Part shown: positions 5,066 through 52,064 of the stretch, piece after piece | Numbering within the stretch: position 1 is the stretch's first letter | Layout of the letters: every line of letters begins with the position of its first letter | Source: Polyangiales bacterium | GTDB taxonomy: Bacteria; Myxococcota_A; Polyangia; Polyangiales; Ga0077539 | DNA: 64,000 bases | Direction of reading: 5' to 3' | NCBI GenBank assembly: GCA_044229975.1 | Contig: JBGARZ010000023.1 | Location: 1 to 64,000 of the forward strand | Notes under the pieces: generated by a model | Database searches by the model: none | Told to the model about the DNA's origin: nothing | Seen by the model: the letters and a program-made list of their open reading frames with translations, nothing else | Program-made: the position numbers and the translations under genes

Positions 5066-5170
5066 GGACGTTACTCCTTGGAGGTTCTGGCGGTCACGGG
5101 CGGGGCATACTGACAGCCGTTTCGCGCTCGAAGACGGGCCATGGGCCCTGGTGCGACGATCAGACGCACC

Positions 5171-34444: not shown

Positions 34445-35908
34445 ATGACAGGCCACTTTGCAGCGCGGGTCGGAATGCTTCTCGCGGGCATGTTGCTGAC
34501 CCCCGCGCCAGTGAGCGCGAACGGTCGCTTCCCGACGGCGGGCTACTTCGTCGCAGGCCCCGGGGTCCGCAATGACGTGTTCGCGCTGCGTACCACCTTC
34601 GGCGTGCTCGCCTCGCGCGACGCCGGGCAGACGTGGACGTGGGTCTGCGAGGCCGCCTACAACCAGATCGGCGCGAGCGACCCCACGCTCTCCATCGGCG
34701 CCGACGGAACCCTGGTTCTCGCCTCGTACCTCGGGCTGATTGCGAGCGACGGCGACTACTGCTCCTGGCCCAGGCTGGCCGGAGTGCCGCAGCGGGATTT
34801 CGCCGACGTGACCAACACCGCCGACGGGCGCTCGCTGGTCGCGCTCGCGGGGCCCGATGGTGAGAACGCGCTCTACCTCTCCAGCGACGCCGGCCACACC
34901 TGGGAGTTGGGGGCTCGCCTCACCGGATACGCGACCGAGACCGTGGACGTCGCGCCCGGCGATCGCCTGCGCGTGTACGTCACCGGCTACGGCAGCGGCG
35001 GGCGACCGGTGCTGCTGCGGAGTGACGACGGTGGTCGTACCGTGCGCGAGGTCACGAGGGATTTCCTGGGAAACCAGAACATCTATATCGCCGGGGTCGA
35101 TGCGACGCGCCCCGACATGATCTACCTCCGCGCCATGAACGGCCTCGCGACCACGCTGCTGCGCAGCGAGGACGGCGGGGCGACGATGCGGGCCGTCGGA
35201 CGGACCGCGCGGGACATGCTGGGCTTCGCGCTCTCCGACGACGGGGAGACCGTCTGGATCGCGAGCGCCGACCGCGCGGAAGGCATCCTGCGGTCGGAGC
35301 GCGGAGGGCCCTGGGTTCGCATGGCGGCGGACGTGGGCGTGAAGTGTCTGCGCTTCCACGCGGGCACGCTGTTCGTGTGTGCGGACGAGGCGCGCGACGG
35401 CTTCGCGCTGGGCTATTCCCACGACGGTGGCGACCACGTCGACCCGCTGCTCTCGTTCCGCTTGGTGGACGGGACGACCACGACGTGCGGCTCGAGCACC
35501 CAGGTCGGCGCCACCTGTCCCGCCCTCTGGTCCTCGGAGACGATCCTGCTGCGGAGCGTTGACGCGAGCGTGCCGAACGCTCCGGTCTTCCACGACGCCA
35601 GCACCGATCATGGGGTCATCACCGACCGCCTTCCGCCGCTCGACACCTACGTCCCGCCGTCGGACGGGGCGACGGTGCGCGACGCGGGTCGTGGACTCGA
35701 CGCGGCGGTCGTGAGCGGGACTGACGCTGCGATGGACGCTCAGCGTCCTCTCGACGCGGCGGTAGGATCGACCGGCCCCGCAGGTGGTTGCGGCTGCTAC
35801 GTCGCCAGTCGCGATGCATCGAGCGATCGGGGTGGGGCGTGCGTCGCGCTGGCCGTGTGGGTCACGTTCGCGGGAACATCAAGGCGCGCGCGGCGTCGGC
35901 GGCGATGA
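34445..35908 (+). CDS. BNR/Asp-box beta-propeller (NGRFP family) with MYXO-CTERM-like tail, paralog 4
   Basis: VSA-NGRFP; Asp-boxes; GGCGC...RRARRRR. Confidence 0.88.
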   Translation: MTGHFAARVGMLLAGMLLTPAPVSANGRFPTAGYFVAGPGVRNDVFALRTTFGVLASRDAGQTWTWVCEAAYNQIGASDPTLSIGADGTLVLASYLGLIASDGDYCSWPRLAGVPQRDFADVTNTADGRSLVALAGPDGENALYLSSDAGHTWELGARLTGYATETVDVAPGDRLRVYVTGYGSGGRPVLLRSDDGGRTVREVTRDFLGNQNIYIAGVDATRPDMIYLRAMNGLATTLLRSEDGGATMRAVGRTARDMLGFALSDDGETVWIASADRAEGILRSERGGPWVRMAADVGVKCLRFHAGTLFVCADEARDGFALGYSHDGGDHVDPLLSFRLVDGTTTTCGSSTQVGATCPALWSSETILLRSVDASVPNAPVFHDASTDHGVITDRLPPLDTYVPPSDGATVRDAGRGLDAAVVSGTDAAMDAQRPLDAAVGSTGPAGGCGCYVASRDASSDRGGACVALAVWVTFAGTSRRARRRRR

Positions 35909-37377
35909 GTCCCTCGCCAGAACGTCCCCTGGGTGGCCGGAGGCGACAGGCGGTGCGGTTGGGGATGCTGTTGGTGGCGACGGCCCTGAGCTCTGCGGAG
36001 GCGCGGGCGAACGGGCGCTTCCCCGGGGCCAACTACTTCGTGGCGGGGCCGGGTTCGCGCAACGACGTGTTCGCGCTGCGTACGACCTTCGGACTGCTGC
36101 TCTCGCGCGACGGTGGTCGGGCGTGGAGCTGGGTCTGCGAGGGGGCCTACGGGGCCATCGCGGGCGACCCCGCGCTCTCGATCGGAGCGGACGGCACCCT
36201 CGTGCTCGCGTCGTACGTCGGCCTGAGCGGCAGCAGCGGCGGTGACTACTGCACCTGGGCGCCTCTGGGAGGAGTTCCTGTGCGGGACTTCATCGACGTC
36301 TCGCAGACCGCGGACGGCCGGTCGATGGTCGCCCTCGCGGGGCCCGGCGGGGAGAACGCGCTCTACCTCTCGTCCGACGGCGGGCGCACCTGGAACCCCG
36401 GCGCGCGCCTCGTCGGGTACACCACGGAGACCGTGGACGTCGCGCCCAGCGACCCGACGCGGGTCTACGTCACCGGGTACGCGACCACGGGCTCGGGCGG
36501 ACCGGTGCTGCTGCGAAGCGACGACGGCGGTCGCACCGTTCGAGAGGCCACGCGCGACTTCCTCGGCGGCGAGAGCGTCTTCCTGGCCGGGGTGGATCTG
36601 ACGCGCCCCGACGTGATCTACCTGCGCGCCGTGCGCGGCCTCCCGACGACCCTGTTGCGCAGCGACGACGGAGGAATGACCGTACGGCTCGTCGCGCAAA
36701 CCGCGCGGGAGATGCTGGGCTTCGCGCTCTCTGACGATGGTGACACGGTGTGGATCGCGAGCGCCGATCCCGCCGGGGGGATACTGCGATCGGAGCGTGG
36801 CGGCCCATGGACGCGCACCGCAGCGGACCTTGGCGTGAAGTGTCTGCGCTTCCACGCGGGCACCCTGTTCGTGTGCGCGGACGAGGCGCGCGACGGCTTC
36901 GCGCTGGGCTATTCCCGCGACGGCGGCGACCACGTCGATCCGTTGCTCTCGCTGCGTCTGGCGGAGGGCGCGTCCGGGGCTTGCGGTCCAGGCACCCAGG
37001 TGGGCGGCGCCTGCGCTTCCCGCTGGGCGACAGAGACGATGCTGCTCCGAGACATCGACGCGAGCGTGCCAACCGCGGCGGTGTTCCACGACGGGAGCAC
37101 CGATCACGGAGTCGCACTCGATCGGGCTTCGCCAATCGACGGGCCGACCGGTCGCCTCGACGCGGGTCAACCAACCGACATGATGGTCCTTCCCCCTGGT
37201 GGCTGCGGGTGTCGCGTAGCGGGGCGGGGCGGAGGGCCAGCACGGGGCGTGACGGTGAGCGCGTGGCTCACCGCGGCGGTGGTGCTCGTCGGGCGTTTGA
37301 GGCGACGAGCGCCGGCGAGGAGTGCCCATCTCCCGGCAGCCCGACTTGCTCCCGCGCAAACGGCGAGGCTCGGTTGA
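35905..37377 (+). CDS. BNR/Asp-box beta-propeller (NGRFP family) with MYXO-CTERM-like tail, paralog 5
   Basis: ATGA overlap with paralog 4 and high similarity to it; GGCGCRV...GRLRRR. Confidence 0.88.
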   Translation: MSPSPERPLGGRRRQAVRLGMLLVATALSSAEARANGRFPGANYFVAGPGSRNDVFALRTTFGLLLSRDGGRAWSWVCEGAYGAIAGDPALSIGADGTLVLASYVGLSGSSGGDYCTWAPLGGVPVRDFIDVSQTADGRSMVALAGPGGENALYLSSDGGRTWNPGARLVGYTTETVDVAPSDPTRVYVTGYATTGSGGPVLLRSDDGGRTVREATRDFLGGESVFLAGVDLTRPDVIYLRAVRGLPTTLLRSDDGGMTVRLVAQTAREMLGFALSDDGDTVWIASADPAGGILRSERGGPWTRTAADLGVKCLRFHAGTLFVCADEARDGFALGYSRDGGDHVDPLLSLRLAEGASGACGPGTQVGGACASRWATETMLLRDIDASVPTAAVFHDGSTDHGVALDRASPIDGPTGRLDAGQPTDMMVLPPGGCGCRVAGRGGGPARGVTVSAWLTAAVVLVGRLRRRAPARSAHLPAARLAPAQTARLG

Positions 37378-37443
37378 CGGAAATGCGAGTGCTTTGATAG
37401 GGCAGTCTCGGAGTGTGCTGGCGCACCTCATTGGGAGGACATC

Positions 37444-37749
37444 ATGGATATCCGAACTGTCGCTTTTGCCGTCGCTTCGTTGGCTTTGGGTTTGGCTGCC
37501 GGAGACATCAGGGCTGAAACACCGATCACCATGCAGGAGGACGTGCTCCAGACACCTCCCGCGACCCCCTTGCAGCACTGCTGGCAAGAGTGCCATCCCG
37601 AGTGCCATCCGGTTTGCGTCCCCGAGTGCCATCCGGTCTGCCACCCCATCTGTGATGCCGATGGGCACTGCCACCAGGACTGTCACCAGGAGTGCCACCA
37701 GGACTGTCACCAGGAGTGCCACCAGGAGTGCCACCAGGTTTGCCGCTGA
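37444..37749 (+). CDS. Secreted (CHxx)n Cys/His-repeat peptide (TPLQ-leader type)
   Basis: GGAGG RBS; signal peptide; ATPLQ followed by 14 Cys at 4-residue spacing in two arms and 12 His; 12-bp DNA periodicity. Confidence 0.85.
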   Translation: MDIRTVAFAVASLALGLAAGDIRAETPITMQEDVLQTPPATPLQHCWQECHPECHPVCVPECHPVCHPICDADGHCHQDCHQECHQDCHQECHQECHQVCR

Positions 37750-37932
37750 CGAAGAGGCGGACCTCCTCGTCGGAAGCCCGCATGTAGAGAGCGAGTGCGC
37801 GCGTTGGCGAGGTTTCTTCCGGGGGGTGTCGCCATCGAAATCCGTCGAGGTGCGACGGAGGCAACGTATCGGGGATCGTCCAAGCTGCGAAGGCCCGATC
37901 GCCGCGAGGCGTGCCGCACCTGCAACCGTTGG

Positions 37933-39258
37933 GTGTACCTTCCCGGCGTGCTTCGACGAGCTCTCCTCGCAACCGCGCTGAGCTTCCTTCCAGCCACGGC
38001 CTACGGCAACGGACGCTTCCCCCAGGCGCAGGAGTTTCACCAAGCCCCGGGCTCGAACAGCGAGCTCATGGTCGTGCGCGCCACCTTCGGACTCATCGTC
38101 AGCGTCGACCGGGGCCAGCGGTGGGAATACTGGTGCGAGGACGCTCTGCAGTACTCCGACGGCTACGATCCGCCGCTGACGTACACCGCCAACGGCACGC
38201 TGCTCGTCGCCCTCGACAACGGCCTCTTGAGCACCCGCGATGGGTGTTCAGTTCGCCGCCAACCCGACCTCGAGTCCCTCAGCGTCAAGGACATCGCCTC
38301 GTCGCCCGACGGCCGCGTGACATGGGCGATCGCGGTGACCCGCAGCATACGACCCGACTCGCGCGTCGCACGTTCGACCGACCAGGGCCTCACCTTCGAG
38401 TTCGTCGGCGACCGCTTCGAGGGGGTGATGCTGGAAACCATCGAGGTCGCGGGCTCCGATCCGCTGCGGCTCTACGCCACCGGCACGCTGACCTCCGACG
38501 GCACCGCGGTGCTCTTCCGCACCGTGGACGGCGGCGTGCGCTGGGTGCGCGCCAGCGCGGGCTTCGGCGAGGCTAGCGGGGTGTACGTCTCCGGCGTCGA
38601 TGGGCATCGCCCGGAGGTCGTCTACCTGCGCGCGACCGCGGCCGGGCGGGACATGGACGCCGGCCCCGCGGGCAGCGCTGATGTGCTCTTCCGCAGCGAC
38701 GATGGGGGTGAGACGCTGCGCGAGGTGCTTCGTACCCGCGGCCCGATGCGGGGGTTCGGACTCTCCGACGACGGTCGACGGGTGTGGGCTGGCGGGCCCG
38801 AAGACGGCGTGTGGCGCTCCATCGACGGGGCAGCGCCCACGCGCTTTTCGGACGAGCCTGTCGACTGCCTCCGGTGGAGTTCGGGTGCCCTGTGGGCCTG
38901 CCGCGTCTTCACCCTCGGCGGCCCCTTGTTGCTGCGGAGCGACGGCGACAGCGCCTTCGTCACAGCGCTTTCGGCGCCTGAGGTTGGCGGTCCTCCGGTC
39001 CGTTGCCCGACCGGAACCGTCGCGAGCGGGGTGTGTCCGTCGCGGTGGAGCGTGGTGCGGCGATCTCTCGTTCAGCCGGCGGCGATCGATGCCTCGACCG
39101 ACCAGGGCGCGGCGGTCACGCAGCCGTCCTCGGCGGGCCATGGATGCCACGCCGGACCTGGGGCGCAGGGGGCTTGGAGCGCCTTCGTCGGGTTCGCCGT
39201 TGCGGCGATCGGACGGCGGCGGCGCACTCGCACCCTCCGCTCCCGCCCTGACGGCTGA
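37933..39258 (+). CDS. BNR/Asp-box beta-propeller (NGRFP family) with MYXO-CTERM-like tail, paralog 6
   Basis: AYG-NGRFP; YWCE; Asp-boxes; GHGCH...AAIGRRRR. Start approximate. Confidence 0.85.
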   Translation: MYLPGVLRRALLATALSFLPATAYGNGRFPQAQEFHQAPGSNSELMVVRATFGLIVSVDRGQRWEYWCEDALQYSDGYDPPLTYTANGTLLVALDNGLLSTRDGCSVRRQPDLESLSVKDIASSPDGRVTWAIAVTRSIRPDSRVARSTDQGLTFEFVGDRFEGVMLETIEVAGSDPLRLYATGTLTSDGTAVLFRTVDGGVRWVRASAGFGEASGVYVSGVDGHRPEVVYLRATAAGRDMDAGPAGSADVLFRSDDGGETLREVLRTRGPMRGFGLSDDGRRVWAGGPEDGVWRSIDGAAPTRFSDEPVDCLRWSSGALWACRVFTLGGPLLLRSDGDSAFVTALSAPEVGGPPVRCPTGTVASGVCPSRWSVVRRSLVQPAAIDASTDQGAAVTQPSSAGHGCHAGPGAQGAWSAFVGFAVAAIGRRRRTRTLRSRPDG

Positions 39259-39348
39259 CGAGCCGTGGGAACTTCCGAGCTCTCCGAAAGAACTACTGCC
39301 TCCCACTGAGCCGTCCCTCCAGGTTGCGGCCAACGCTCTGCGCCTGCT

Positions 39349-39643
39349 GGCGTTCAGCGATACCCGACGTACGACGCAGTTGCCCGTTGGCTTGTGACGT
39401 CAATCCCTCTAGAAGGCGTTACTTCTTGCCATCATAAAGGCAAGATATCCTCCGTCTGGATCCCTCCTAATCCGGGGCCGAGGGGCGCGAAGCGGAACCG
39501 ACGGCCTGTAGAGCACCTCTACAGAATGCCTCAGGCCGACAAATTAGCTAACGATTATAGCAAGTTATCGGCATGGCTCCACCGGGGTCTGCCGGAATCT
39601 GGCCGCTCGTGCTTCCACCGGGGTCTGCCGGAATTTGGCCGAT
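39349..39643 (+). other. Putative replication origin copy 1 (palindromes, AT-rich tract, DnaA-box-like 9-mer, 2 iterons)
   Basis: Inverted homolog of 44138-44464; AT-rich at 39541-39570; TTATCGGCA at 39565; CCACCGGGGTCTGCCGGAATYTGGCCG at 39579 and 39615. Confidence 0.65.
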
Positions 39644-39665
39644 CGCTCGGCCGGGCCACCGTCTG

Positions 39666-41181
39666 CTACCGCCCACTCAGTCGGGCGACAGCTTCTTCGA
39701 GCGCGCGTCCCATCTCCGCCTCGGGGTCCGCTTCGGCCCGGATCACGCTCCGCGTCCCGACCCCAAGAGTTTGGGTCACCTGGACCTGAGTCCAGCCCTT
39801 GGACCTGCGCCATGCGCGCAGCTCGCTGCCCGTCGGGATCGAGGGCACTGGGGCGGCTCGACGGGCGGGAGGTGGTGGATCAGGCGGTCGCGGACCCACT
39901 GGGGGGGTAGAGGTGACAGCGGCCCCCGAGCGTCCGTTCGCCGCCCGCTTGACACCATCGCACCTCGCCCAGACCTTCGACGCGTTGGAGTTCGGCCAAG
40001 TCGCGCTCGAGGGACGTCCAGGCGCGACCCGGCTTGTTGGAGTCGAACTTGATGCCCGCGGTCTCGAGGAGTCCCTGGCCGGTGAGCGTGACGCACTCCC
40101 GGCCCTTCGCGAGGTCCCAGCGCCAGTGGATCGGGAGGATCAGTCCCAGGGCGAGGGCGCAGGGGTGGCGCACATGGTCGATGCGCGCGAGGTCGGCCGG
40201 GGCGGGTGCCCAGAGTGATCCCAGGGTGCCGTCGCGGTCCCGGACACCCTCGTAGAGCGCGGGGTGGATGGCCAGCACGAGCCCCTCCAGCGCCCACTCG
40301 GAGTCGTAGATCGCCTCGGCCCGCTGCGTGATGCTGAGCACGGGGCCGCGCATCCGCAGCTCCCCGCTGCGGTGGTAGATGGCCAGTTCGAGCCGCGTCA
40401 GCGCTTCGACCTCGTCGGCGACGACCTTACGCACGGAGTCGTCGCGGCGCGCGCGGTCGGAGTACCCGAGCGCGTCCATGTGCGCCTCGATTTTCCACCG
40501 CACGAACCCCGTTCGCCCCTCCGTGGTGAGCAGCCGGTGCCAGGCCGCCCAGTGCCGGAGCCCCTGCCACCCGCACCACGCCCTCACGGCGTGGATGATC
40601 CGCTCGGGGAGTTCTCGGACGTCCAGCTGCAAGCGCACCTGCCGGGTGGGGGCGAGGATCTCGGCCCACCCGTCCATGACCGGCGTCTTGTGCGGTTGCC
40701 TGTCTTTCGGGCGGTCGCGCCAGCCGTTGAGCAGCGCGTGGTGCGCGGGACCCGCGTCGAGTGCCATGAACGGCCGCTCGCGGTCGCGCTGGGCCGCGCG
40801 GACCGCGTGAGCCGAGAGCGCCGACAACGCCAGGACCCTCGCCAGCTCCCAGACCCTGGACAGGAAGTCCTGCTCGCCCGCGACCCCTTGCTCGGCGGCC
40901 ATGACCAGCGAGGCTGCACCCCACGTCCAGTCGAAGGCCGCCCCGCCGCGGATTCCGGGAAGGGTCGCCGGTCTGTCCGGTGTACCGGTTCCCCGATCGA
41001 CTGGGCGGTTCGCGCCGTTGGCTTGGAGCGCGAGGACGGTGCTGAACACCTCGCCGCGCGCTTCCAGATCGCTGCGAAGGTCGGCGAGGCCTTCCGGGCC
41101 GCTCGCCGTGGCCAGGAGCCGGTCGATCACCAGGCCGAGGTCCTTGTCCGACACCAGGGCTCGAAGCGCGTTCCGCAGCAC
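39666..41181 (-). pseudogene. Rep-like protein with C-terminal XRE HTH, frameshifted paralog of 44751..46397
   Basis: Shares WQGLRHWAA, EVEALTR and LALGLILPIxWRW. The C-terminus (LYPP/QWVRDRL/TGSELRAWR) is split over three frames near a G7 run at 39901. Confidence 0.7.
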
Positions 41182-41229
41182 CTGGGCGTCGGCTCGGCGT
41201 CACGGACACGCCGCGCGAGCACGCGAAGG

Positions 41230-41735
41230 AGGTGCTGAGGGAGCTGCTGGCGATGAGGGTCCAGAAGACGCTCATGCTGAGCGGAGACCACCAGGGGTCG
41301 CCGACGCGGTGGCCCGGCAGGTCGGCCTGACCGACGCGAAGGGCGACCTGCTCCCCGAGGACAAGGGCCGCGTCATCGACGAGCTCGCGAAGGCCGGCGT
41401 CGGCGTCGCCATGGTAGGCGACGGGTTCAACGACGCCCCAGCGCTCGCCTGATCGACCGTCGGGATCGCCATGCGGGCAAGCGGTTCGGACGTGGCGCTG
41501 AAGACAGCAGACATCGTGCCCATGGGTGACGACCTGCGGGCTTTGCCCTTCGCCGTGGGCCTCAGCCGCGCCTGCCGGCGGGTCATCCAACAGAACCTCT
41601 GGGCGAGTCTCGGCATGGTCGCGTTCCTCATCCCAGCAACTGTGTTCGGGATCGCCGGCATCGGCGTCGCGGTCGTGCTGCACGAAGGTTCGACACTCCT
41701 TGTCGTGACCAACGCCCTGCGCCTGCTGGCATTCA
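41230..41735 (+). pseudogene. C-terminal fragment of a P1B-4 heavy-metal ATPase
   Basis: [24 protein letters not shown], then an in-frame TGA, then VVLHEGSTLLVVTNALRLL. Confidence 0.85.
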
Positions 41736-41844
41736 TTGCCCCCATTTCACAGCGAAACCATAGTTGCTTCTCCGCCTTTCCTTCTGGACGTCATTCCTTC
41801 ATGCCGTCACGAAGGCAAGATGGTCGCGTCGTACCGTGCGTCCA

Positions 41845-41923
41845 CGCCGCGTGCTTCCACTGCGACCCTCTGCTGGAGGGGTGTGACCCCGATCCGGCGT
41901 GACATCAGTCGTCGAGCTGTTGA
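41845..41923 (+). repeat. ~80-bp direct repeat, copy 1
   Basis: CGCCGCGTGCTTCCACTGCGACCCTCTGCTGG...GTCGTCGAGCTGTTGA, near-identical to 43827-43910. Confidence 0.9.
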
Positions 41924-41924
41924 G

Positions 41925-43448
41925 TTAGGGGGGTCGAGTCGGCGACTGTGACCCTGACGGCCCATGCTTCCGCGGCGGGGACCGACGGCGAGCCGGGACG
42001 ATCAGTCCCAGGACTGCCAGCACGAGCGACGCGCCACCCCCACCGGGCGCGGCGTGCGCCCCCGCGCGGCAGTTGCACCCGTCGCGCGGCGCTGGTGCGC
42101 CAACGGCGTCGAGCACGGTGTCGGGGGCATCGAGCACCCGGCCCGCGTCGCGGGCGTCGGCCCCGCCGAGATCCTCAGACACGTCGGGCGCGGCGCCGAG
42201 GTCCGCGGGCAGCGTCCCGGCGTCGAGCGGCGCCTGCATCCCGCTCGCGTCGAAGACGGCGGCATCGTGGAAGACCGGCGCGCGCGGCGCGCTCGCGTCG
42301 ATGCTCCGAAGCGGCGCCGAGACCGCCGACCAGAAGTCGGCGCACGTCGCCCCGACGCTGGCGTCGCCGCACATCGGAGAGGTGCCGGTGAGCCGACGTA
42401 GCGAGAGCAGCGGGTCGATGTGCTCGCCGCCGTCGTGGGAGTAGCCCAGCGCGAATCCGTCAATCACCTCGTCGGCGCACACGAAGAGCAGCCCGGCGTG
42501 ATAGCGCAGGCACTTCACACCAACGTCGCCACCGACACGCGTCCACGGGCCACCGCGCACCGATCGGCGGATGCCCTCGGCGCGAGCGGAGCTCGCGGTC
42601 CAAACGGTCTCGCCGTCGTCGGAGAGCGCAAAGCCCACCATCTCCTCCGACGTCTCCCCGATGGGGCGTAGGGTCAACCCGCCGTCATCGCTGCGCAGCA
42701 ACACCGTCCCGAGACCACGGGTACCTCGCACGTACACCACGTCGGGCCGGCGCGGATCGACGGCAGCGAGGAATACCCCATGGGCGCCGGCAAAGTCCCG
42801 CGCGACCTCGCGCACCGAGCGCCCGCCGTCGTCACTGCGCAGAAGAACCGGGATGCCGCCGCGAACATAGGCCGTCACGTAGACTCGCCGCGGGTCGTTG
42901 GGCGCCACGTCCGCGGTCTCGCTGAAGTACCCCATCAGCCGCGCGCCAGCTTCCCAACTCCGCCCGCCGTCGGACGAGAGCACCAACACGTCGTCGCCGG
43001 TGGGCCCGGCCAACGCAACCATGGCGCGCCCGTCGGCGGTGTGGGTAATGTCGGCAAAGCCCCGCGTGGGCGCGCCCGCCGGACGCGTCCAGCGACAGTA
43101 CGCCCCGTTGCTGGATGCGAGCCCGGTGAAGGTTGCGATCACCACGGTGCCGTCGGCGCCGATGGAGAGCGACGGATCGGCAGCGCCAGGGGCATTGAAG
43201 CCCTCCTCACAAACCCAATCCCACTGCCGCCCGCCGTCTCGCGAGAGCAGCAGACCGAAGGTCGTGCGCAGCGCTAGGACGTCGTTGGTCGCGCCCGGGC
43301 CCGCGACGAAGTATCCCGCTGCGGGGAAGCGCCCGTTGGCCTGCGCCTCGCCCGCGAAACCGAGAGCCAGCGCCAGACCCAGTGCCCCCACCCTACCCCG
43401 CACCGCTCCCCCGCACATCCAATGCCCACCCGCCGTTGGTGCTGTCAT
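41925..43448 (-). CDS. BNR/Asp-box beta-propeller (NGRFP family) with MYXO-CTERM-like tail, paralog 7
   Basis: AQA-NGRFP; close to paralogs 4 and 5; DGCNCRA...LIVPARRR. Confidence 0.87.
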   Translation of the reverse strand: MTAPTAGGHWMCGGAVRGRVGALGLALALGFAGEAQANGRFPAAGYFVAGPGATNDVLALRTTFGLLLSRDGGRQWDWVCEEGFNAPGAADPSLSIGADGTVVIATFTGLASSNGAYCRWTRPAGAPTRGFADITHTADGRAMVALAGPTGDDVLVLSSDGGRSWEAGARLMGYFSETADVAPNDPRRVYVTAYVRGGIPVLLRSDDGGRSVREVARDFAGAHGVFLAAVDPRRPDVVYVRGTRGLGTVLLRSDDGGLTLRPIGETSEEMVGFALSDDGETVWTASSARAEGIRRSVRGGPWTRVGGDVGVKCLRYHAGLLFVCADEVIDGFALGYSHDGGEHIDPLLSLRRLTGTSPMCGDASVGATCADFWSAVSAPLRSIDASAPRAPVFHDAAVFDASGMQAPLDAGTLPADLGAAPDVSEDLGGADARDAGRVLDAPDTVLDAVGAPAPRDGCNCRAGAHAAPGGGGASLVLAVLGLIVPARRRSPPRKHGPSGSQSPTRPP

Positions 43449-43512
43449 CCCTACTCCCGCGATCCTGACACGGAATGCCCGGCTTCCGCCCCGGACAAGG
43501 GCTCGATGACTT

Positions 43513-43531
43513 CCTACTATCCGTCGTAGTA
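43513..43531. promoter_or_regulatory. Putative BlaI-type operator upstream of BNR paralog 7
   Basis: CCTACTATCCGTCGTAGTA has the same arms and spacing as 14634-14652. Confidence 0.5.
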
Positions 43532-43599
43532 TTTTCGCGACTCGCGCGGACGTTCCGCGCCAGGAGACGGACGGAACGTGACCAAACTGCAGTCTGACC

Positions 43600-43826
43600 T
43601 GCGGCGCGCTCACGCTCGTCGGCTGGGTGGCCGGGAAGCTGGGCGCCCCTCCCTCACCTGCAACGTGCCCTTCTGGCTCGCGTACGCGGCGGGCGGGTGG
43701 TTCGCGCTGCGTAAAGCGGTGCTCGTCATCCGCGCGAAGAAGTTCGAGATCGACTTCCTCATGCTGGTGGCCGCCGCGGGCGGGGGCGCTCGGGGAGTGG
43801 TTCGAGGGGGCGCTGCTGCTCTTCCC
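43600..43826 (+). pseudogene. N-terminal TM fragment of a P1B heavy-metal ATPase
   Basis: LAYAAGGWF...KFEIDFLMLVAAAG / ALGEWFEGALLLF in shifted frames, cut off by the 80-bp repeat. Confidence 0.75.
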
Positions 43827-43910
43827 CGCCGCGTGCTTCCACTGCGACCCTCTGCTGGTGGAGGGGTGTTGACCCCGATCCGGCGTGGCATCAGGTCGTC
43901 GAGCTGTTGA
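43827..43910 (+). repeat. ~80-bp direct repeat, copy 2
   Basis: Matches 41845-41923 with small indels. Confidence 0.9.
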
Positions 43911-44137
43911 ACTCCCCGTGATCCTGCGCGAGGTGACCAGTGGGTCCGCGACCGCAGCACGGCGCAGCCACGCCCGACGACACCACCGACCCGTAGCGGA
44001 TCGGCGAAACCTCTCCAGACAGCGACTCAGCAAGGGCGCCCGTACATGTGCGCGGCGGGCCTCGGACGCAGCTGCTCGGGGGCGACCTCGCGGCGCTCAC
44101 GCCATGGGTGCCGCCAAAGCACAGAGGCCCGGCCACA

Positions 44138-44464
44138 CGATCGGCCAAATTCCGGCAGACCCCGGTGGAGGATTCGGCCAGCTTCCGGCAGATCCTGGTG
44201 CCAGATCGGCCAAATTCCGGCAGACCCCGGTGGGGACATGTCGATAACTTGCTAGAATCGTTACCTAATTTTCTAAACCAAGGCCTTCTGTACAGGTACT
44301 CTACAGAGCCGTCGGTTCCGCTTCGCTCCTCTCGGCCCCGGATTAGGAGGGATACGGCCGAAGGATGTCTTGCCTTCATGACGGCAAGAGGCAACGCCTT
44401 CCAGATGGAGTGACGTCACGAGATAGCGGGCAGTGGCGTGGTACACCGGGTATCGTTGAACGCC
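44138..44464 (-). other. Putative replication origin copy 2 (3 iterons, DnaA-box-like 9-mer, AT-rich tract, palindromes)
   Basis: TCGGCCAAATTCCGGCAGACCCCGGTGG-type units at 44141, 44174 and 44206; TGTCGATAA at 44239; AT-rich at 44244-44282. Confidence 0.7.
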
Positions 44465-44683
44465 CCTCGTTTCGCAGCGAAACCGTAGGCGTCCACCCGC
44501 CTTTCCATGTAGACGTCATTCCTTCCTGACGTCACGAAGGCAAGCCTTCGTTCCGTCACCTTATGTGCCGGACCGTCCTCCAGACGGGCCGAGCACCAGA
44601 AGGTTCTCCTCAGAGGAGAACCTCAGAGAGGACGTCAGAAAGTTGATTTCTCCTGTACTTCCAATGACTTGCAACAGGGCCTT

Positions 44684-44837
44684 CCGCAGGATCTGCCGGA
44701 TTCCTGCCGGTTCACCCGCAGGATCTGCCGGATTCCTGCCGGTTCATCCGCTAGGTCTGCCGGATTCCTGCCGGTCCACCCCTCCTGGCCAGTTCATCCG
44801 CAGGGTCTGCCGGATTTCTGCCGGTCACCTGCCGGTC
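44684..44837 (+). repeat. Iteron-like tandem array, 32-bp period
   Basis: CAGGATCTGCCGGATTCCTGCCGGTTCAYCCG-type units at 44687, 44719, 44751 and a fourth at 44801; overlaps the 3' end of the rep-like gene. Confidence 0.85.
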
Positions 44838-46397
44838 GAGACCCGCCCGGATGGCTCGCCCGAGCGGCTCGTCAGGCGCCGCCTCGGCTCCCCGAATGGT
44901 CCTCTCCCCCACGCCCAGCATCTTCGCCGCTTGCGCCTGCGTCCAACCTTGCTGCAAACGCCAGGCGTGTAGTTCGCCACCTGTTAGCAACAAGGGCGTC
45001 GCGAGCTGCTCGGCCGGCTCGATTCCATGAACCAATCGGTCACGGACCCACTGCGGCGGGTAGAGGTGGCAACGCCCGGTACGGGACCGCGCCTCGTTCG
45101 GGTTCCACCGGGCGAGCCCGAGTCCCCCCACGCGCTGCAGCTCCGCGAGGTTGCGGTCGAGCGCCGTCCAGGCCCTCCCGGGGTCGTGCGAAGACACGGG
45201 GATCCCAGCCGTGTCGAGGAGGCGCTCTCCCGTGAGGGTCAGATGATCCAACCCGTCGGCGGTGTCCCATCTCCACCGGATCGGCAGGATCAGTCCGAGG
45301 GCGAGCGCGTACGGGAAGCGGGCGTGGTCGATCGTCGCCAGCTCGGTAGGAGCCGGGGCCCAGAGCCTCCCGATGGAGCCGTCGGCGCGGCGGACCCCCT
45401 CGTACAACGCCGGGTGGATGACGAGCTCGAGCCCCTGGAGCGCCCACTCGGACCCGCGCAGGGCCTCGCCGCGCTGGGTCACGGCGAGAACTGGGCCGCG
45501 CAGGCGGAGGGTGCCGTCTGAGTTGTAGACGGCGACCTCCATGCGCGTGAGGGCTTCGACCTCGGCGGCGACGGTCGCCCGCAGCTCGGGCGTTCGCCGC
45601 GAGCGGTCGGCGTAGCCGAGGGCGTCGAGGTGGTCTTCGAGCGACCAGCGGATGCGCCCCGTACGTCCGGCCTCGGTGAACAGGCACTGCAGCGCGGCCC
45701 AATGCCGGAGCCCCTGCCACGACCGCCACGCTTTGATGGCATGAACGATCCGCTCGGGCAGCTCCTGGACGTCGAGCCGTAGCCCGAGCTGTTTGCTGGG
45801 GTGGAGGATCTCGGCCCACCCTTCGCGCTGGGTCGTCGTGTAGGGACGCCGACGATTCTTCGGCAGGTCGCGCCACCGGTCGATCAGCGAGTGGTGAACG
45901 TTGCCGGCGTCCAGCGCTATGAAAGGCCGCGCTCGGTCGCGTTCGATCTCGCGCCACGCGAGGTAGGCGCGGGCCGCGAGTGCGACAGAGATGGGCGGTT
46001 CATCGTCCGCGTCGTCGCGGCCGCCCGAGGCGAAGAGGCCGCGGATGCGGTCGCAGCAGGCAGCCGCTGCGGCGGGGTCCGGCGCCCGGTCGCCGAGCCA
46101 GGCGACGACATCGGCGGGGGCGGCGGCCAGCGGCCAGAGCGGCAGGGCAGAGCCGCCCTCCACGCTGACCTCGATGGCCATCCAGACGGTCGGGTCGGCG
46201 CCGAGTTCGGCGCCCGCCGCCGTCAGCGCGGCGAGGTGCGGCTCGGTGTCGGAGAGGCCGGAGGCGCGCACCCGATCGACCACCGCCGCGCGCACGGCAT
46301 CAGCGACCAGCGTTCGGAGCGCGCCGTCGAGCGCGTCGAGGTCGGCTCGCACGAGCAGAGCACGGGCGTCGGAGCGGCGCACGACGAGAGGGGTCAT
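44751..46397 (-). CDS. Putative replication initiator (Rep-like) with C-terminal XRE-type HTH
   Basis: Downstream of parA and its partner, abutting iterons; GELHAWRLQQGWTQAQAAKMLGVGERTI HTH. Function inferred from context. Confidence 0.6.
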   Translation of the reverse strand: MTPLVVRRSDARALLVRADLDALDGALRTLVADAVRAAVVDRVRASGLSDTEPHLAALTAAGAELGADPTVWMAIEVSVEGGSALPLWPLAAAPADVVAWLGDRAPDPAAAAACCDRIRGLFASGGRDDADDEPPISVALAARAYLAWREIERDRARPFIALDAGNVHHSLIDRWRDLPKNRRRPYTTTQREGWAEILHPSKQLGLRLDVQELPERIVHAIKAWRSWQGLRHWAALQCLFTEAGRTGRIRWSLEDHLDALGYADRSRRTPELRATVAAEVEALTRMEVAVYNSDGTLRLRGPVLAVTQRGEALRGSEWALQGLELVIHPALYEGVRRADGSIGRLWAPAPTELATIDHARFPYALALGLILPIRWRWDTADGLDHLTLTGERLLDTAGIPVSSHDPGRAWTALDRNLAELQRVGGLGLARWNPNEARSRTGRCHLYPPQWVRDRLVHGIEPAEQLATPLLLTGGELHAWRLQQGWTQAQAAKMLGVGERTIRGAEAAPDEPLGRAIRAGLDRQVTGRNPADPADELARRGGPAGIRQT

Positions 46398-46447
46398 GGC
46401 GTTTCGAGAAGAGAGCCGTGCAGAGACATCGGAATGCGCTGTCTCAG

Positions 46448-46843
46448 TCAGGCCCGGAGTCGGGCGCGCAAGAGGGCCTTCAAGTCGGCCTCGGACTTCG
46501 CTTCGCTCAGGTCGAGACCCTCGCTCTCCAGCGCATCGACGAGCGCCCGTAGGATCTCCGCCCGCCGGATGGCGGCGCCGGTCTTGGCCCGGATGTCGTT
46601 TGCCAGGCGGTCGAGGAACACGATCTGTCTGTTGAAGAGGACCACGGTGACCTTGGTCCATTCCTCGTGGGTGGCAGGTCGCCCCAGGGCGGGTGCAGCC
46701 GCCTTCACGGCAGTTGGTTCGACCAGCATCGGTGGGGCCGGCTCAGCTGCCAGCGTCGCTGCCGTTTCGGGCTCGGCGGGCGCCGCCTCTGCTGCGGTGG
46801 CCGAGAAGATGTTCATCTTGCCCAGCCTGCTCGGCTTGTTCAT
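46448..46843 (-). CDS. Small ParA partner, ribbon-helix-helix-like centromere-binding protein
   Basis: Disordered Ala/Pro N-terminus, then KVTVVL...RAEILRALVD (strand-helix-helix pattern); immediately downstream of parA. Confidence 0.65.
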   Translation of the reverse strand: MNKPSRLGKMNIFSATAAEAAPAEPETAATLAAEPAPPMLVEPTAVKAAAPALGRPATHEEWTKVTVVLFNRQIVFLDRLANDIRAKTGAAIRRAEILRALVDALESEGLDLSEAKSEADLKALLRARLRA

Positions 46844-46878
46844 GCGTTCCTCACTTCCATTATGACGGCAGTCCGCCC

Positions 46879-47652
46879 TTACTTCTTGCCGTCTTGACGG
46901 CACCTTTGCAAGACCTCAGCAGCGAGCCGGCGATAGGCGTCGGCGCCGCTTGAGTTCGGGTCGTGCCCGAAGATCGTCTCGCCGAAGCTCGGGGCCTCCG
47001 AGAGGCGGACGTTGATCGGAATCTCTGTCTTGAAGACGCGCTCGCCGTAGTGCCCTCGGATGAGGTCGATGACCTCCCCGGTGACCTTCGGCCGACGGTC
47101 CACCTGGGTGAGCACCAGTCCCAACAAGGTGGCCTTTGCACCGGTGCCCCGGCGAAGCAGTTCCGTGGCCTCCATCAGGTTCACGAGTCCCTCGACGGCC
47201 AGGTACTGGGGTGTGACCGGCACCAGGAAGGCGTCCGCGGCCACCAGGGCGTTGATGGGCACCATCGAGAGCGAGGGAGGGCAGTCGAGGAGGATGAAGG
47301 CGTAGTCGCCTCTCACCGGCGCCAGGGCCTCCACCAGACGGCGCTCGCGTCCCTTCACGTCGGCGAGGGCGAGGTCGGCGTTGGCCAGGGCCATCGAGCC
47401 AGTGAGCAGGTCGAGGCCCTCGACGGCCGTCGGACGGATCGCGTCGCGAATCGGCAGCCCGTCGAGCAGGACCTCCGCCGACGAGGGGGCGAGCTTGTCG
47501 CGCGCGACCCCGAGCGAGAAGGACGCCGACCCCTGGCTGTCCAGATCGGCTAGCAGCACGCGCCGCGTCTTCGTGGCGAGCCCCGCCGCGAGGTTGACCG
47601 CCGTGGTCGTCTTGGCGACGCCACCCTTGTTGTTGACCAGCGCGATGATCAT
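46879..47652 (-). CDS. parA: ParA/Soj family partitioning ATPase
   Basis: NNKGGVAKTTT, LADLDSQG, ILLDCPPSL, LSEAPSFG. Confidence 0.95.
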   Translation of the reverse strand: MIIALVNNKGGVAKTTTAVNLAAGLATKTRRVLLADLDSQGSASFSLGVARDKLAPSSAEVLLDGLPIRDAIRPTAVEGLDLLTGSMALANADLALADVKGRERRLVEALAPVRGDYAFILLDCPPSLSMVPINALVAADAFLVPVTPQYLAVEGLVNLMEATELLRRGTGAKATLLGLVLTQVDRRPKVTGEVIDLIRGHYGERVFKTEIPINVRLSEAPSFGETIFGHDPNSSGADAYRRLAAEVLQRCRQDGKK

Positions 47653-47921
47653 GCCATCCGTCCTTCCGCCTAGACGGCTGGGTAGCATGACGCCCTGACT
47701 TCTTTCCATCCCAAAGTGGACCGGCATACTGTGGTCGTCGAAGGGGACCTTCCCCACCTTCGCCATGCCCACAACTACCCCTGCGAGGTCGGCGTAGAGC
47801 TCTGCGCGTGCCAGGCTCCGCCGATTCACATGCAGCTCCATGCGGGTAGACCAGGCGCACAAGCCGTTGCCACAACCGTCCCCTGCGCTTGCGGCGCCGA
47901 CCAGATCACGGGGGTGGTGCG

Positions 47922-50201
47922 ATGAGCCTCCCCGTCCAGGAACGTCGCGGGGTGTCCCCCGTCGCGCGATCGGGGTTCGCGCGGGACACGCGTATCGAAC
48001 CCAATGCCCTCACCGCAATCAAGCAGGAGGCGGCGTTTGGTTGGCTCTGCTGCCAGCTGTTGCCCGGGATGTCGAGCATTCGCGTGCTCCCCGGCGAGGT
48101 GGGCACCGAGAGGGACTGGGTCAGGCCCGCGATCCAATCGAACGTGGACCCTCGGGACGCCGTCGCCGCACACCTCCTCGCGGGCGACAGAAGGAACTCG
48201 GTGTCGTTGCCGGGGTACACGCGAGAGCCCGTGCGGTCGGTCGCGTTTGCGTACTCGAAAAGGGCGCGCACCTCGCGCCTGACAATCCACCTGTCTGGCC
48301 GCGTTCCAGGCTACGAGGTCGGCACGTTCGTCCAGCGCCTCGGCGACCGAGTGGGCCACAGCCGCCTGTTGGTCACCTCGGTCAGCGCCATGGTCGGCGG
48401 TCGCAGGGAGCACCGATGCCACGTCCGCGTGCCGGAGATGGAGGTGTTATGCGCGGTGACCGCGGTCTCTCAACTGCTCGAAGACTGCGGCTTCGCGCAG
48501 CGTAGCGGGGTGGTCGAGGTGTTCCCGGACAGCCGGTTTGCCGGCCTGCCCTTCGGGCTGCTCGAGAACGAGTTGCTGCGCTACGGCGACGGCGGTCTGG
48601 AGTCCGAGCCCGAGTGCGGGTGGCGGCGGCTGGTCGCGGAGTTTCAGGCGTTGGAGACCCTCGACTTCGAGCGTCTTCTTCCGCCCTCCTCCTCCGACCC
48701 AGAAGTCACCACATCTCGCGCCGCCGACCCGCTCGCTCCGGCGACTGTCGCCCCTCGTGCTGCCGACCCACCGATCTCCTCGACGGCGCCGTCCGTGGCT
48801 CCCGGGAGCGTTGATGCCTACTTCGAGCTGGTCTGTCACGGGGTCGCCCTCGTGTCCGTGCAGCCAGAGTCCTGCCCATGGACCCCGGAGGGGGGCTGGA
48901 AGTGGTTGAAGACGCGAATCGACGTGAAGCGTTCGGTTGTCGCGCACCTGCTGGCCTCCCAGACGGGGCAGCCCTCGCGGCTCGGGCGACGCGGCATCCG
49001 CGCGTCCGGGCTCTCGTACCGGCCCGATGCGACGACGTCCCGCATCACGATCGACCTGGACGGCAAGCACGGGTACGAGCCCGCCAAGGTCGTCGCTGCT
49101 CTCGCCGCCATCGTGGGACGCGACCGCCTGATGGTGACCGCGAGCAGCGGCTCCCCCGGGCACTACCATTGTCACGCCCGGGTCCCACCGATGCGCGTGG
49201 ATGAGACGGTCGCGGCGTCGCGCGCGCTGCTCGACAGGGCCGGGTTCAAGTGGAAGCTGGGTGGCGCGGAGACCTACCCGAGCACTGGCAACTGTCGCCT
49301 GCCGTTCGGCCTGGGCGGGTGCGAGCTGTTCGAGGACGAGCAACTCCAGGTCGGCCATCAGGAGACGTGGCAGGAGCTCACGAAGCGGCTCTGTGGGATG
49401 CCGACGCTGGTGTTCCAATCGGGGTCGCCGCCTGGTAGCCGAGCGCGTCGGCACGTCCGCTCGCGCGCCCGGGCCCGTAACGCCGAGACGGCTGCCCGCA
49501 TCGAGAGGTGGCGCGCGAACGGGGTCGAACGCCACGAGCGAAACCAAGCGCTGTTCGACCTCGTGGTGAACGGTCGTTGTCGGGGCCTCGCGGAAGATGA
49601 GGTCCTTCGCGAGCTCCAGGGATGGATCGACGGAGGCGGCCTGGCGCGGAGCGCCGTGGCGCGGAAACCCGGCGGCATCGCCAAGCAGCGTAACCAGGTT
49701 CTCCCGGATGTTGTGGAGCGGGTGTATGGCTACCCTCCCCCCGCGAAGCAGAAGGCCAACCTCACGGAGACAGAGATCGCCTGGGTCGTCGAGATCGCCA
49801 AAGAGCGATGCCCCAAACGGCGCGCGCACGCGGTGGTGCTCCTGCTCGACGTGCTGCCATGGTTCAAGGCCGCGTGGCTCGAGGGCAGGACGGACGTCAC
49901 GCTCGGGCAGAAGGAGTGGGCCCGAACCCTCGGGCGACGGGGGGATGGCTACGCGTTGCTCCGGCGACAACTGCACCTGTTCAGGCAGACGTCCCACTAC
50001 GTGATTGGCGAGCGCTCGACCACCTGGTGCCTGACCGAGCCCGTCCCCTTCGAGTCTCGCCATCCGACCGAGCGTCTGGTTTCGACGAACCCGCGTCCCG
50101 CGACGAAGCGCACTGGTTCGAAGCCCTCCCGCCTCCAAAAGACGGCGTGGGTTCTGGCGGCCGCTGAGCGGGTAGCTCGCGGCGTCGTCCGGGATGGGTG
50201 A
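47922..50201 (+). CDS. AEP-superfamily primase/replicase-like protein with duplicated catalytic domain and PriCT-like helix
   Basis: Second repeat has ITIDLDG, SSGSPGHYH and CRLPFG, followed by HERNQALF; first repeat is alignable but degenerate. Confidence 0.6.
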   Translation: MSLPVQERRGVSPVARSGFARDTRIEPNALTAIKQEAAFGWLCCQLLPGMSSIRVLPGEVGTERDWVRPAIQSNVDPRDAVAAHLLAGDRRNSVSLPGYTREPVRSVAFAYSKRARTSRLTIHLSGRVPGYEVGTFVQRLGDRVGHSRLLVTSVSAMVGGRREHRCHVRVPEMEVLCAVTAVSQLLEDCGFAQRSGVVEVFPDSRFAGLPFGLLENELLRYGDGGLESEPECGWRRLVAEFQALETLDFERLLPPSSSDPEVTTSRAADPLAPATVAPRAADPPISSTAPSVAPGSVDAYFELVCHGVALVSVQPESCPWTPEGGWKWLKTRIDVKRSVVAHLLASQTGQPSRLGRRGIRASGLSYRPDATTSRITIDLDGKHGYEPAKVVAALAAIVGRDRLMVTASSGSPGHYHCHARVPPMRVDETVAASRALLDRAGFKWKLGGAETYPSTGNCRLPFGLGGCELFEDEQLQVGHQETWQELTKRLCGMPTLVFQSGSPPGSRARRHVRSRARARNAETAARIERWRANGVERHERNQALFDLVVNGRCRGLAEDEVLRELQGWIDGGGLARSAVARKPGGIAKQRNQVLPDVVERVYGYPPPAKQKANLTETEIAWVVEIAKERCPKRRAHAVVLLLDVLPWFKAAWLEGRTDVTLGQKEWARTLGRRGDGYALLRRQLHLFRQTSHYVIGERSTTWCLTEPVPFESRHPTERLVSTNPRPATKRTGSKPSRLQKTAWVLAAAERVARGVVRDG

Positions 50202-50491
50202 AAGTTCCCCGTCGAAAAAGCTGTGAGTTACCAGCCACTTCCGGTCAAACAAGACGCACTCTGTCTGCTCCTACCCGTTGGGACGCACTGTGTCGGTGAG
50301 GGCGGCGGCGGACCAAGACCACGGAGTGCTGATCGGAGAGCAGACGGTCGGACGCAAGTCGAGGAGGAGAGGGAAGCCGTCGCCCCCGCTGCCGCCGTCG
50401 TCGATGCCGCGTGAGACCACGGAGTGCTGGTCGGATGCCGGTCGCTGGGCCGGTTCGCGGGCCCCACCGTACGCACCCCAGCGGGGCGCAG

Positions 50492-50985
50492 CTACTGGCG
50501 CGATCGGGGAGGGCGAGGGGGCGGCTGGAAGAGCTCGGGCTGGTCGTCCGCTGCCTCCGCGCGCCGCTTCGGGCGGTGGGGGCGCGCCTCCGCGCGCTCG
50601 GGAGGCGGGAGACGGACGGGCGGCCAGGGAGGCGGCACGGCGGCCTCTTCCTCTTCGGCGTCGGGCGCGCGGACGCGCTCGTCGCGCGGGCGCAGGAACA
50701 CCACTCCCGCCGGCGGGGCGAACGCGTCGGGCGCCTCGTCGAGCAGCGCCCGCCCGGCGAGCCGCTCAAGCTCCGCGGCTGCGGCGAGCTCACGGGCGAC
50801 GTGGTCCAGGTAGGAGCGCGCGCGGCGTAGCCGCGTGACGAGGTCGGCGAGCTCGGGGCGGAGCTCGACGAGGCGGGCCACACGGGGATGGGCGCAGTCC
50901 GCCGCGAGCACCGCGGGCTCGGTCGAGCCGCAGCGGAGGCACAGCTCCACCGTCGTCGTGATGGGGCGGACGCGCTGGTCGGTCA
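50492..50985 (-). CDS. Hypothetical protein with CxxC motif and coiled coil
   Basis: CLRCG...CAH, helical middle section, QPELF tail; start uncertain. Confidence 0.4.
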
Positions 50986-51159
50986 CGACACGAGCGTAGC
51001 CCCGCGCGGAACGGCCCGTCACCTTTCGGCGCGGCGCCGCGCCGACGTCATCCGGCTGGGCGGCGCCCTTGCCATGACGGCCCAGGGCGGGCGAAGACGC
51101 GCCACCGTGGCGCCCCCGCACACGCCTCGGCCCGCACCTCACGTCCGCGCGCCCTGTGG

Positions 51160-51706
51160 CGCGCGCTACGCCTTGGCTGCCCTCCTCGCGAGCCTGCCGC
51201 GCCGGCCCGACCTCGCGGGCGCCCTCCTCGTCGTCCGCGCCGCCCAGGCCGACGCGCGCCTCCAGGGCCGCCTCGGCGTGCCGCTGCCCAGCTTCTCCTT
51301 CCAGGGCGGGCGCGAGAACGAATACTTCGCCCAGGGCGGCCTCGAAGTGCCCCTGCCGATCTACCAGCGCAACCAGACGGGCCGGGCCGTCGCCACCGCC
51401 CGGGTCGCGACGCGCCAGGCCGAGCGCGTCGCGGGGCTGGCGCGGGCCGAGGCGGAGCTGCGGTCCGCCTACGCCGGGTACGAGGGCACGCGCGCGGCGC
51501 TGGCCACGCTGCGCGCTGCGGACGATGCGGTGGGCCTCACCGAGCGCCTCGCGACGCGCGCCTACGAGCTGGGTCAGCGCGACCTGGCGAGCGTCCTGGT
51601 GGCCCGCCGCTCAGCCGCCGAGGCCCGGCAGCGGCGCCTGGAAACCCTCGTCGCCCTCGCCCGGGCACGCGTTGCGGTCGATCAAGCGGCGGGGCGGGGT
51701 CGATAG
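51160..51706 (+). pseudogene. C-terminal fragment of a TolC/CzcC-family gene
   Basis: RRPDL, VPLPIYQRNQ, RAYELGQRDL; no signal peptide or N-terminal half. Confidence 0.75.
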
Positions 51707-52064
51707 GCTTCCTTCCGTTAGGAAGGCCTTCCGTCTTGCCGTCTTGCCGTCCTCGCACCCTATCCGTAGAGGAGGGCGCGTCGCTCCGCCTGGGCGTGGA
51801 CGCGACCGGCTGGCTGTGTGACCAACGGGATGTGGCCGCACGGCACCGCCCAGGCGACCGAAGGCTCGGGAGGGACAAGCTCCCGGGCCTTCAAGTTTTC
51901 TCCAGCCAGACCCCGGGACTCCACCGCAGTCCGGCCGCGGTGTCAGGTCCCCTCGGGACCCTCACGAAAACCGCGCTTGAACGAAGCCATCAACAGTCAA
52001 AAGCCAGGCCGGCAAGCAGCGCCACGCCAAACAGCAGCGGCGGAGGGACGGCTTCACTCCTGCG

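Follow-up and report, generated by a model that had tools for sequence, protein, structure and literature searches.

Introduction

The origins of iteron plasmids, as laid out in the part of a review that deals with them (PMC4980987), have their repeats in helical phase, with an AT-rich stretch adjoining. A similar arrangement of direct repeats in helical phase beside an AT-rich stretch is found at positions 44138-50201 of the stretch analysed here, the first 64,000 nucleotides (the window, 1-64000) of contig C29 from a Polyangiales bacterium, whose 10.0-Mb genome is assembled in 39 contigs and is 93% complete. The repeats follow a rep/par region with a parA gene, a small gene and a gene for a 548-residue protein, Rep A. 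We consider it likely that this region serves the replication and partition of a free, circular plasmid of ~156 kb with genes for heavy-metal efflux and anti-phage defence, and that Rep A is an iteron-binding initiator of an unnamed family.

With R6K pi (2NRA), F RepE (1REP), pPS10 RepA, RK2 TrfA and the Pfam family Rep3_N, Rep A has in common a predicted tandem winged-helix core. In contrast to pi, RepE, RepA and TrfA, it has no sequence match, is about two times longer, and carries an extra N-terminal domain and a C-terminal XRE helix-turn-helix (HTH); moreover, the new family has its origin at the 3' end of rep, DnaA boxes are rarely found in it, and a cognate dnaB often lies directly upstream. 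RctB of Vibrio chromosome 2 is the best Foldseek match and is also a multi-domain protein, and some relatives of Rep A are on large replicons with conserved gene order, but the identity is 12-13%, the match is confined to the core, and there is no sign here of methylation or cell-cycle control. IncQ plasmids (RSF1010), which are primase-helicase-initiator replicons, resemble an 8.5-kb circle of the new family in which primase-like, helicase and initiator genes lie in a row before three repeats; however, no homology to the IncQ proteins was found in searches of PLSDB, and the plasmid of the window has a primase without a helicase. Type Ib partition systems include TP228 ParFG and pSM19035 delta-omega. 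Like these, the window has a ParA without N-terminal HTH, followed by a small flexible-tailed protein with repeated sites nearby, but its small protein has no ribbon-helix-helix (RHH) profile match, and its sites, which are 16-bp palindromes, are scattered across the plasmid.

In the parts of two papers that bear on the subject, pMF1 is presented as the first or only myxobacterial replicon and as the basis of the sole type of shuttle vector described, pMF1.14 as lacking known motifs, and myxobacteria as single-replicon organisms with very few plasmids (PMC8538405, PMC11610982). Excerpts of other reports add pSa001, of 209.7 kb, with its replication mechanism left open (10.1101/2020.10.06.323741), a plasmid of MxC21-1 (PMC11705834) and pYRE (PMC11237760). 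The initial annotation of this stretch had called myxobacterial plasmids rare, with pMF1 as the classic case; they are indeed few, but at least four have been reported, not pMF1 alone. All four probably come from the same phylum as C29 and have ParA-based partition, and pSa001 is of similar size. Homology with pMF1.14 is not detected (hhalign probability 0.35% for rep and 0.1% for the primase). The pSa001 plasmid may hold a homolog, and no initiator is named in the available part of its table of coding sequences (PMC8048970). A term search gave no mention of myxobacteria in the accessible parts of PMC13342612 and PMC12456017, and nothing relevant was found in those of PMC13445942 and PMC12772301. 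No description of this Rep family was found in the literature outside subscription journals.

Predicted fold of Rep A

The initiator gene and its origin comprise the following features.

44751-46397, minus strand: Rep subtype A, 548 residues, likely the active initiator, by predicted fold and HTH_3 match
44692-44825, minus strand: iteron-like repeats of origin A, four copies of ~20 bp at 44806, 44756, 44724 and 44692 (spacing 50, 32 and 32)
44565-44691, minus strand: AT-richer stretch and palindrome of origin A, likely the unwinding element (GC fraction 0.48 over 44600-44683)

Rep A consists of an N-terminal domain (residues ~1-155), a predicted tandem winged-helix core (~157-455) and an XRE HTH (~470-525) that matches Pfam HTH_3 at residues 476-511 (E-value 1e-5). 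Its AlphaFold (AF2) model has a pLDDT of 89. The top Foldseek matches of this model are domains 2-3 of Vibrio RctB (5tbf, E-value 1.3e-4), R6K pi (2nra) and F RepE. Structural comparison by VIA gave a Z of 11.5 for pi (2nra; 214 residues, root-mean-square deviation (rmsd) 4.4, model residues 157-453) and of 11.0 for RctB (5ubf), the next row being at Z 7.1. These matches suggest that Rep A has a tandem winged-helix core as in iteron initiators, and the Rep-like fold about which the initial annotation had asked is thus predicted. In an Atlas neighbour cluster of Rep A, Rep3_N occurs in 11% of members.

The likeness is not seen at the level of sequence. Rep3_N, RepA, TrfA and RctB are all missing from the 25 most-matched Pfam families (the best 25 of 50) of 72 family members at E-values up to 1, no Rep family profile of NCBIfam matches Rep A, and a profile search of the Protein Data Bank with Rep A returned XRE domains only. 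When three Rep subtypes and the primase were compared with the proteins of PLSDB, nothing came up beyond weak HTH matches. Rep A likely works like an iteron initiator yet without belonging by sequence to a named Rep family, and the proposal of an uncharacterised replicon family is supported.

Origin architecture

The array of 32-bp period that had been noticed behind rep is real (44684-44781, Tandem Repeats Finder score 166), and two of the four repeat copies are within the last codons of rep A. As the last three repeats are 32 bp, or three helical turns, apart, Rep molecules bound to them would line one face of the helix. The same type of repeat also follows the closest Rep relatives (L008, L047, L049), and the block 44565-46398, comprising rep A and origin A, is found at 85-86% identity in L026, L029, L047 and L050. 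The 10.0-Mb genome has four clusters of the repeat core, three of them on C29 and the fourth on contig C30, and each adjoins a Rep-family member or shares its contig. The initial annotation had seen a single origin-like segment; origin A bears this out, but there is a second, opposed origin of another subtype at 44139-44233.

We compared 82 loci, near-duplicates included, namely those of the window and C30, 26 from genomes and 54 from metagenomes. Seven loci without the gene end and eight with less than 450 nt downstream were excluded from the repeat count. At least three copies of a 14-mer are found within 650 nt of the rep end in 63 of the remaining 67 loci and in none of 67 in-gene control windows, a contrast weakened by the control being coding DNA and by near-duplicates among the 67. 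Among 56 distinct origins, the last two copies are spaced by 32 bp in 48, 31 in two, 64 in three and another distance in three. The GC fraction past the last repeat has a median of 0.45, against 0.68 in the control, and in 40 of the 56 origins (control 0) the AT-rich stretch is followed by a palindrome whose arms are at least 8 bp long. Judged from this recurrent layout, the AT-rich stretch beside the repeats is likely an unwinding element. Within the repeat, the 3' half is conserved, and the 5' half tracks the Rep clades in a tree of 34 selected rows, a pattern that relatedness alone would also give. At L075, the strongest repeat set downstream of rep is in reverse orientation, unlike at the other loci.

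Spread of the Rep family

A word search with Rep A found 119 homologs, and a profile of 72 members extended the family to 208 clusters at 50% identity (E-values up to 1e-30). The related loci are mostly labelled Polyangiales, Myxococcota, Myxococcaceae or Deltaproteobacteria, with six others. A full-length rep of any subtype was found in 13 of 30 other draft genomes of the same family of bacteria. Wider sampling, with three to four candidates scored per genome, gave none among 270 genomes from other families of the order, and two, both of another family, among 400 genomes from across the phylum. One genome of the same genus has several Rep-family members on separate contigs.

In the 82 loci, dnaB is found in 44 and parA in 39, and roughly half of the relatives have a cognate dnaB immediately ahead of rep. 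One or the other of parA and dnaB is linked to rep in 51 of the 59 loci of at least 8 kb. Homologs of Rep A are linked both to iteron-like repeats and to these genes, in keeping with the replicon that was first proposed. Since the Rep family had not been recognised, it could serve, together with its origin signature, as a marker for hidden plasmids in Myxococcota assemblies.

Two loci show how small such a replicon may be. L090 (8,615 nt with a 127-nt terminal repeat) and L097 (8,503 nt with a 15-nt repeat) are one 8,488-bp circle with different start points, and it carries genes for a primase-like protein, DnaB and Rep, three repeats, and genes for RelB/YafQ, ParA, its small partner and a tyrosine recombinase. 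By its gene content, this circle would be a natural minimal replicon. These two are the only ones with exact terminal repeats among 41 whole-contig loci; none of six genome contigs has them, and no sign of closure was found for G024:C10 and G023:C175.

The multiple copies of rep prompted the idea of a transposase, which was rejected, as the fold matches are initiators and the repeats are on one side only.

Probable circular closure of C29

The window begins with two features that have counterparts at the far end of C29.

1-142, plus strand: right end of an insertion sequence (IS; 1-136) and 6-bp target duplication (137-142), with the left end and the matching duplication at the far end of C29
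143-754, minus strand: N-terminal half of a gene of ~380 codons, with the C-terminal half at the far end of C29

Both termini of C29 (the last 140 and the first 136 bases) are ends of one 3,647-bp IS, and both are flanked by the 6-bp target duplication GCTACG. The IS interrupts a single gene: all 51 longer homologs match both ends of C29, with residues up to ~210 at its start and from ~200 at its end. Closed through one IS copy, C29 would be a circle of 155,558 bp. The contig ends therefore support a circle with a single IS insertion, which favours a plasmid over an integrated element, the two options that the initial annotation had left side by side for a replicon carrying this metal island. 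Three intact copies of the IS, on C11, C31 and C38, each have their own matching 6-bp duplication. Because copies 99-100% identical are found on these tRNA-bearing contigs, the circle is tied to this host genome. The IS has two open reading frames (ORFs), and its 6-bp target duplications surround a CTAC/GTAG-like core; it is at 434891-438537 on C11, at 80116-83762 on C31 and on C38.

The gene content is that of an accessory replicon. Among 104 C29 proteins scanned with NCBIfam, there is no core protein of ribosome, replication or transcription, no tRNA was found on the contig, and no conjugation genes were recognised in the protein scans. The named proteins of this set are mostly CzcA/CusA efflux systems, P1B ATPases, copper proteins, regulators, CBASS and IetAS-like defence genes. 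The nadE and agmatine deiminase genes are second copies, with 76-78% identical copies elsewhere in the genome. An integrase had not been seen in the window; the contig does have a serine recombinase outside it, at 121644-122432.

Several observations weigh against a free plasmid initiated by Rep A. The fold likeness is distant (8-13% identity, rmsd 4.4-6, TM ~0.5 on the target), and no clear ribosome-binding site is found ahead of rep A. DnaA-box-like sites are present in only nine of the 56 origins and four of the controls. The GC skew of C29 has no switch at the origin. In a genome of the same family, a truncated, core-only rep homolog beside a Lon-protease-like gene (L111) is apparently chromosomal. 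In addition, two more loose IS ends, on C24 and C1, permit a cointegrate path in the assembly graph.

The last of these points leads to the alternative that survives best, that a plasmid-derived circle has been integrated in the chromosome by recombination between IS copies (C24-IS-C29-IS-C1), its replicon being silent or decaying. Four IS ends, two left and two right, are loose in the assembly, which would fit, as would one broken rep and the ATPase gene fragments around the origins. A simple cointegrate, though, needs matching flanks; those of C24 (CGTAAC) and C1 (GCTAGT) match neither each other nor C29, while those of C29 match, so that a cointegrate is disfavoured, and rep A, parA and origin A are intact. 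We regard integration as unlikely.

Partition genes and palindromic sites

The partition module of the proposed plasmid comprises two genes, and two sets of candidate sites were found.

46879-47652, minus strand: ParA Walker-type ATPase, 257 residues, without N-terminal HTH; AAA_31 match from residue 2 (E-value 8e-49)
46448-46843, minus strand: protein of 131 residues, likely the type Ib centromere-binding protein, with a low-complexity N-terminal tail and a strand-helix-helix C-terminal part
46857-46902: two palindromic sites at the junction of parA and the small gene, candidate parS or operator
44360-44553: cluster of 16-bp palindromes at 44371, 44519 and 44527 (inverted repeat I2), candidate parS centromere or resolution site

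With rep A, both genes are on the minus strand, as first annotated. The small gene had been called RHH-like; it does have a strand-helix-helix pattern, read from the sequence, but no RHH profile matches it and no Pfam family does so above cut-off. The partner type of other loci gives weak RHH matches (E-values 0.003-0.025). NCBIfam matches to ParA are below cut-off. The 131-residue gene is directly behind this type of parA in all eight loci that have it, and the site at the 3' end of parA is found in six of these eight and in none of the 74 other loci. With up to one mismatch, the 16-bp palindrome occurs five times on C29 and on none of the 38 remaining contigs; sites of the cluster served to define the motif, and three of the five occurrences (41802, 122422 and 133971) were not used for this. 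These C29-specific palindromes may be parS or a resolvase site.

A probably displaced rep and a second origin

Beside the module, the window holds a broken rep and two further origins.

39681-41197, minus strand: Rep subtype B, broken, its first codons replaced by a P-type ATPase fragment, with a frameshift near 39,900 in a homopolymer run
39349-39655, minus strand: origin B of the broken rep, with two repeats, AT-rich stretch, palindrome and one candidate parS site
44141-44360, plus strand: origin B', with three repeats at 44141, 44174 and 44206, AT-rich stretch and palindrome, without a cognate rep adjoining

The broken paralog and its own array span 39573-41197, and its DNA is 88-89% identical to intact reps in L018-L020, L066 and L067. 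Origin B', with its array at 44139-44233, is of the subtype of the displaced Rep and opposite in orientation to origin A; it has a GC fraction of 0.43 over 44234-44310 and is 82% identical to 39349-39655. P-type ATPase gene fragments at 41181-41734 and 43587-43910, 84-85% identical to C29 142546-144756, flank the origins as rearrangement scars.

In seven related loci, the par pair of the window precedes a subtype-B rep. Contigs from three sequencing runs of three studies (X1, X4, X7) join position 46448 directly to 41197, skipping 5.25 kb, which argues that rep A and origin A are later arrivals in the space that separates the par genes from rep B. The closest relatives of rep A are paired with a different, convergent par pair. 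From these gene orders, the par cassette appears to be the native partner of subtype-B rep, which rep A would have displaced. Such a replacement would amount to a change of incompatibility type.

The join of the small gene to rep A was not seen among the matches listed in eight runs (none with this strain; best share 0.21), nor was it found in 13 related loci, and both findings add to the points against the proposed plasmid module. Because this junction was not found elsewhere, the family could be real and the order par-rep A-origin A-origin B'-rep B nevertheless be a chimera, made in assembly from a rep A plasmid and a par-rep B plasmid residing together. In relatives, this par cassette invariably accompanies rep B, and the convergent par pair accompanies rep A; the same-genus genome shows that several family members can be on different contigs, and the frameshift of rep B, in a homopolymer, is absent from contigs of relatives. 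However, the junctions have no common repeat able to mislead an assembler, and C29 closes cleanly as one circle. A chimera is improbable, more so than integration.

The AEP primase-like gene

Divergent from the rep/par genes is one further gene of the module.

47922-50201, plus strand: archaeo-eukaryotic primase (AEP)-like protein, 759 residues, accessory

The primase-like gene of the initial annotation has the fold of an AEP primase-polymerase (prim-pol), but it is not part of the family core, where it is found in 2/82 loci. The protein has two tandem AEP domains that are 34% identical, an internal duplication. The first lacks the DxD motif; the DxD and His motifs are intact in the second only, with D378, D380, H416 and H418 conserved. 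The protein also has a helical PriX/PriCT-like domain and a winged helix. Foldseek matched it to the CAPP prim-pol at an E-value of 1e-4, and VIA gave a Z of 13.4 (rmsd 3.4, 179 residues). Eight homologs were found, and only two of the 31 genomes of the family have one. The primase is accessory and outside the core of the Rep family.

The intact catalytic motifs, helical primase C-terminal domain and winged helix would also suit a true initiator, as on primase-type replicons, with the 548-residue protein as a regulator. This is very unlikely, given how rarely the gene accompanies rep, and since it is rep that the repeats follow, with a type that differs between Rep clades, and the 8.5-kb circle does without this AEP primase. 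Pairs of initiator and DnaB are typical of some temperate phages, but a prophage or phage-plasmid origin of the module is most improbable, as no relative is found in IMG/VR or among 50,697 phage records and NCBIfam names no virion gene among the 104 proteins of C29.

Proposed mechanism

For the plasmid that we favour, pi, RepE and TrfA suggest by analogy that the repeats would be bound by Rep monomers through their two winged helices, one of them on the subtype-specific 5' half and the other on the conserved 3' half of the repeat. The Reps bound on one helix face could then open the adjacent AT-rich stretch. DnaB helicase would be loaded next, the cognate one in about half of the relatives, and that of the host or of C30 in the case of the C29 plasmid. 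The XRE domain and the palindrome by the AT-rich stretch may, more speculatively, serve copy control. ParA would work together with the small protein and the plasmid-specific palindromes as a type Ib system that segregates the copies, and the AEP primase would be an optional helper.

Other probable circles of the lineage

A second member of the Rep family in this genome is on C30 (150 kb), with dnaB at 135992-137257, rep at 134301-135995 and repeats at 134040-134261 (loci L100-L105, L006 and L007). Both ends of C30 fall within a giant cysteine-repeat gene, which is seen for no other of the 39 contigs. With its dnaB-coupled second Rep, it probably forms another circle. Its gene set includes many for radical SAM proteins, a His-Xaa-Ser system, and gmhA, hldE and hldD, of which no other copies were found in the genome; the gene order around rep is conserved in many relatives. 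Such sole copies would suit a chromid, although a chromid would be fixed in the lineage and full-length rep of any subtype turned up in no more than 13 of the 30 draft family genomes. G023:C13 (137 kb) likewise starts and ends inside one giant cysteine-repeat gene, and in G018:C34 (87.6 kb), the end holds residues 7-249 and the start residues 254-429 of one protein. At L022, L027, L068, L070, L072 and L075, rep with its own repeat type lies inside flagellar gene clusters. Flagellin is found in 14 of 30 family genomes, and on the same contig as rep in one (G002:C649).

We tentatively suggest, as an arrangement about as likely as not, that this uncultured lineage has multipartite genomes, in which one unnamed Rep family runs several compatible, coexisting circles, with the iteron's variable half setting them apart. 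With the same reserve, these would include a conserved dnaB-rep replicon of ~90-150 kb with radical-SAM and heptose genes, a flagellar-cluster replicon, and metal-resistance plasmids that swap rep and origin.

The results would define an initiator family that profile libraries overlook and an origin signature that is easily recognised. They also yield 3-kb candidates for mini-replicon tests and compatible vectors, and would place metal-resistance, anti-phage and possibly flagellar gene sets on separate replicons.

Further observations on C29

An Rfam scan of 39000-52000 gave no match. At 108216-115341 (L003), C29 has an anti-phage block in which an IetAS-like ATPase and S8 peptidase are joined by a CBASS cyclase and its 4TM effector. 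Amid copper genes, there are an MNIO (bufferin-like) maturase pair and an MbnP/MbnH pair, at 102517-104081 and 145586-147891. The window has short ORFs with His/Cys-rich or Gln/His-rich tandem repeats at 32531-33204 and 37445-37750, which are possible metal-binding peptides. At least seven paralogous BNR-repeat secreted proteins with a common N-terminal motif are encoded at 3041-6505, 24079-25434, 34475-39258 and 41925-43391 of the window, and further copies are found elsewhere in the genome.

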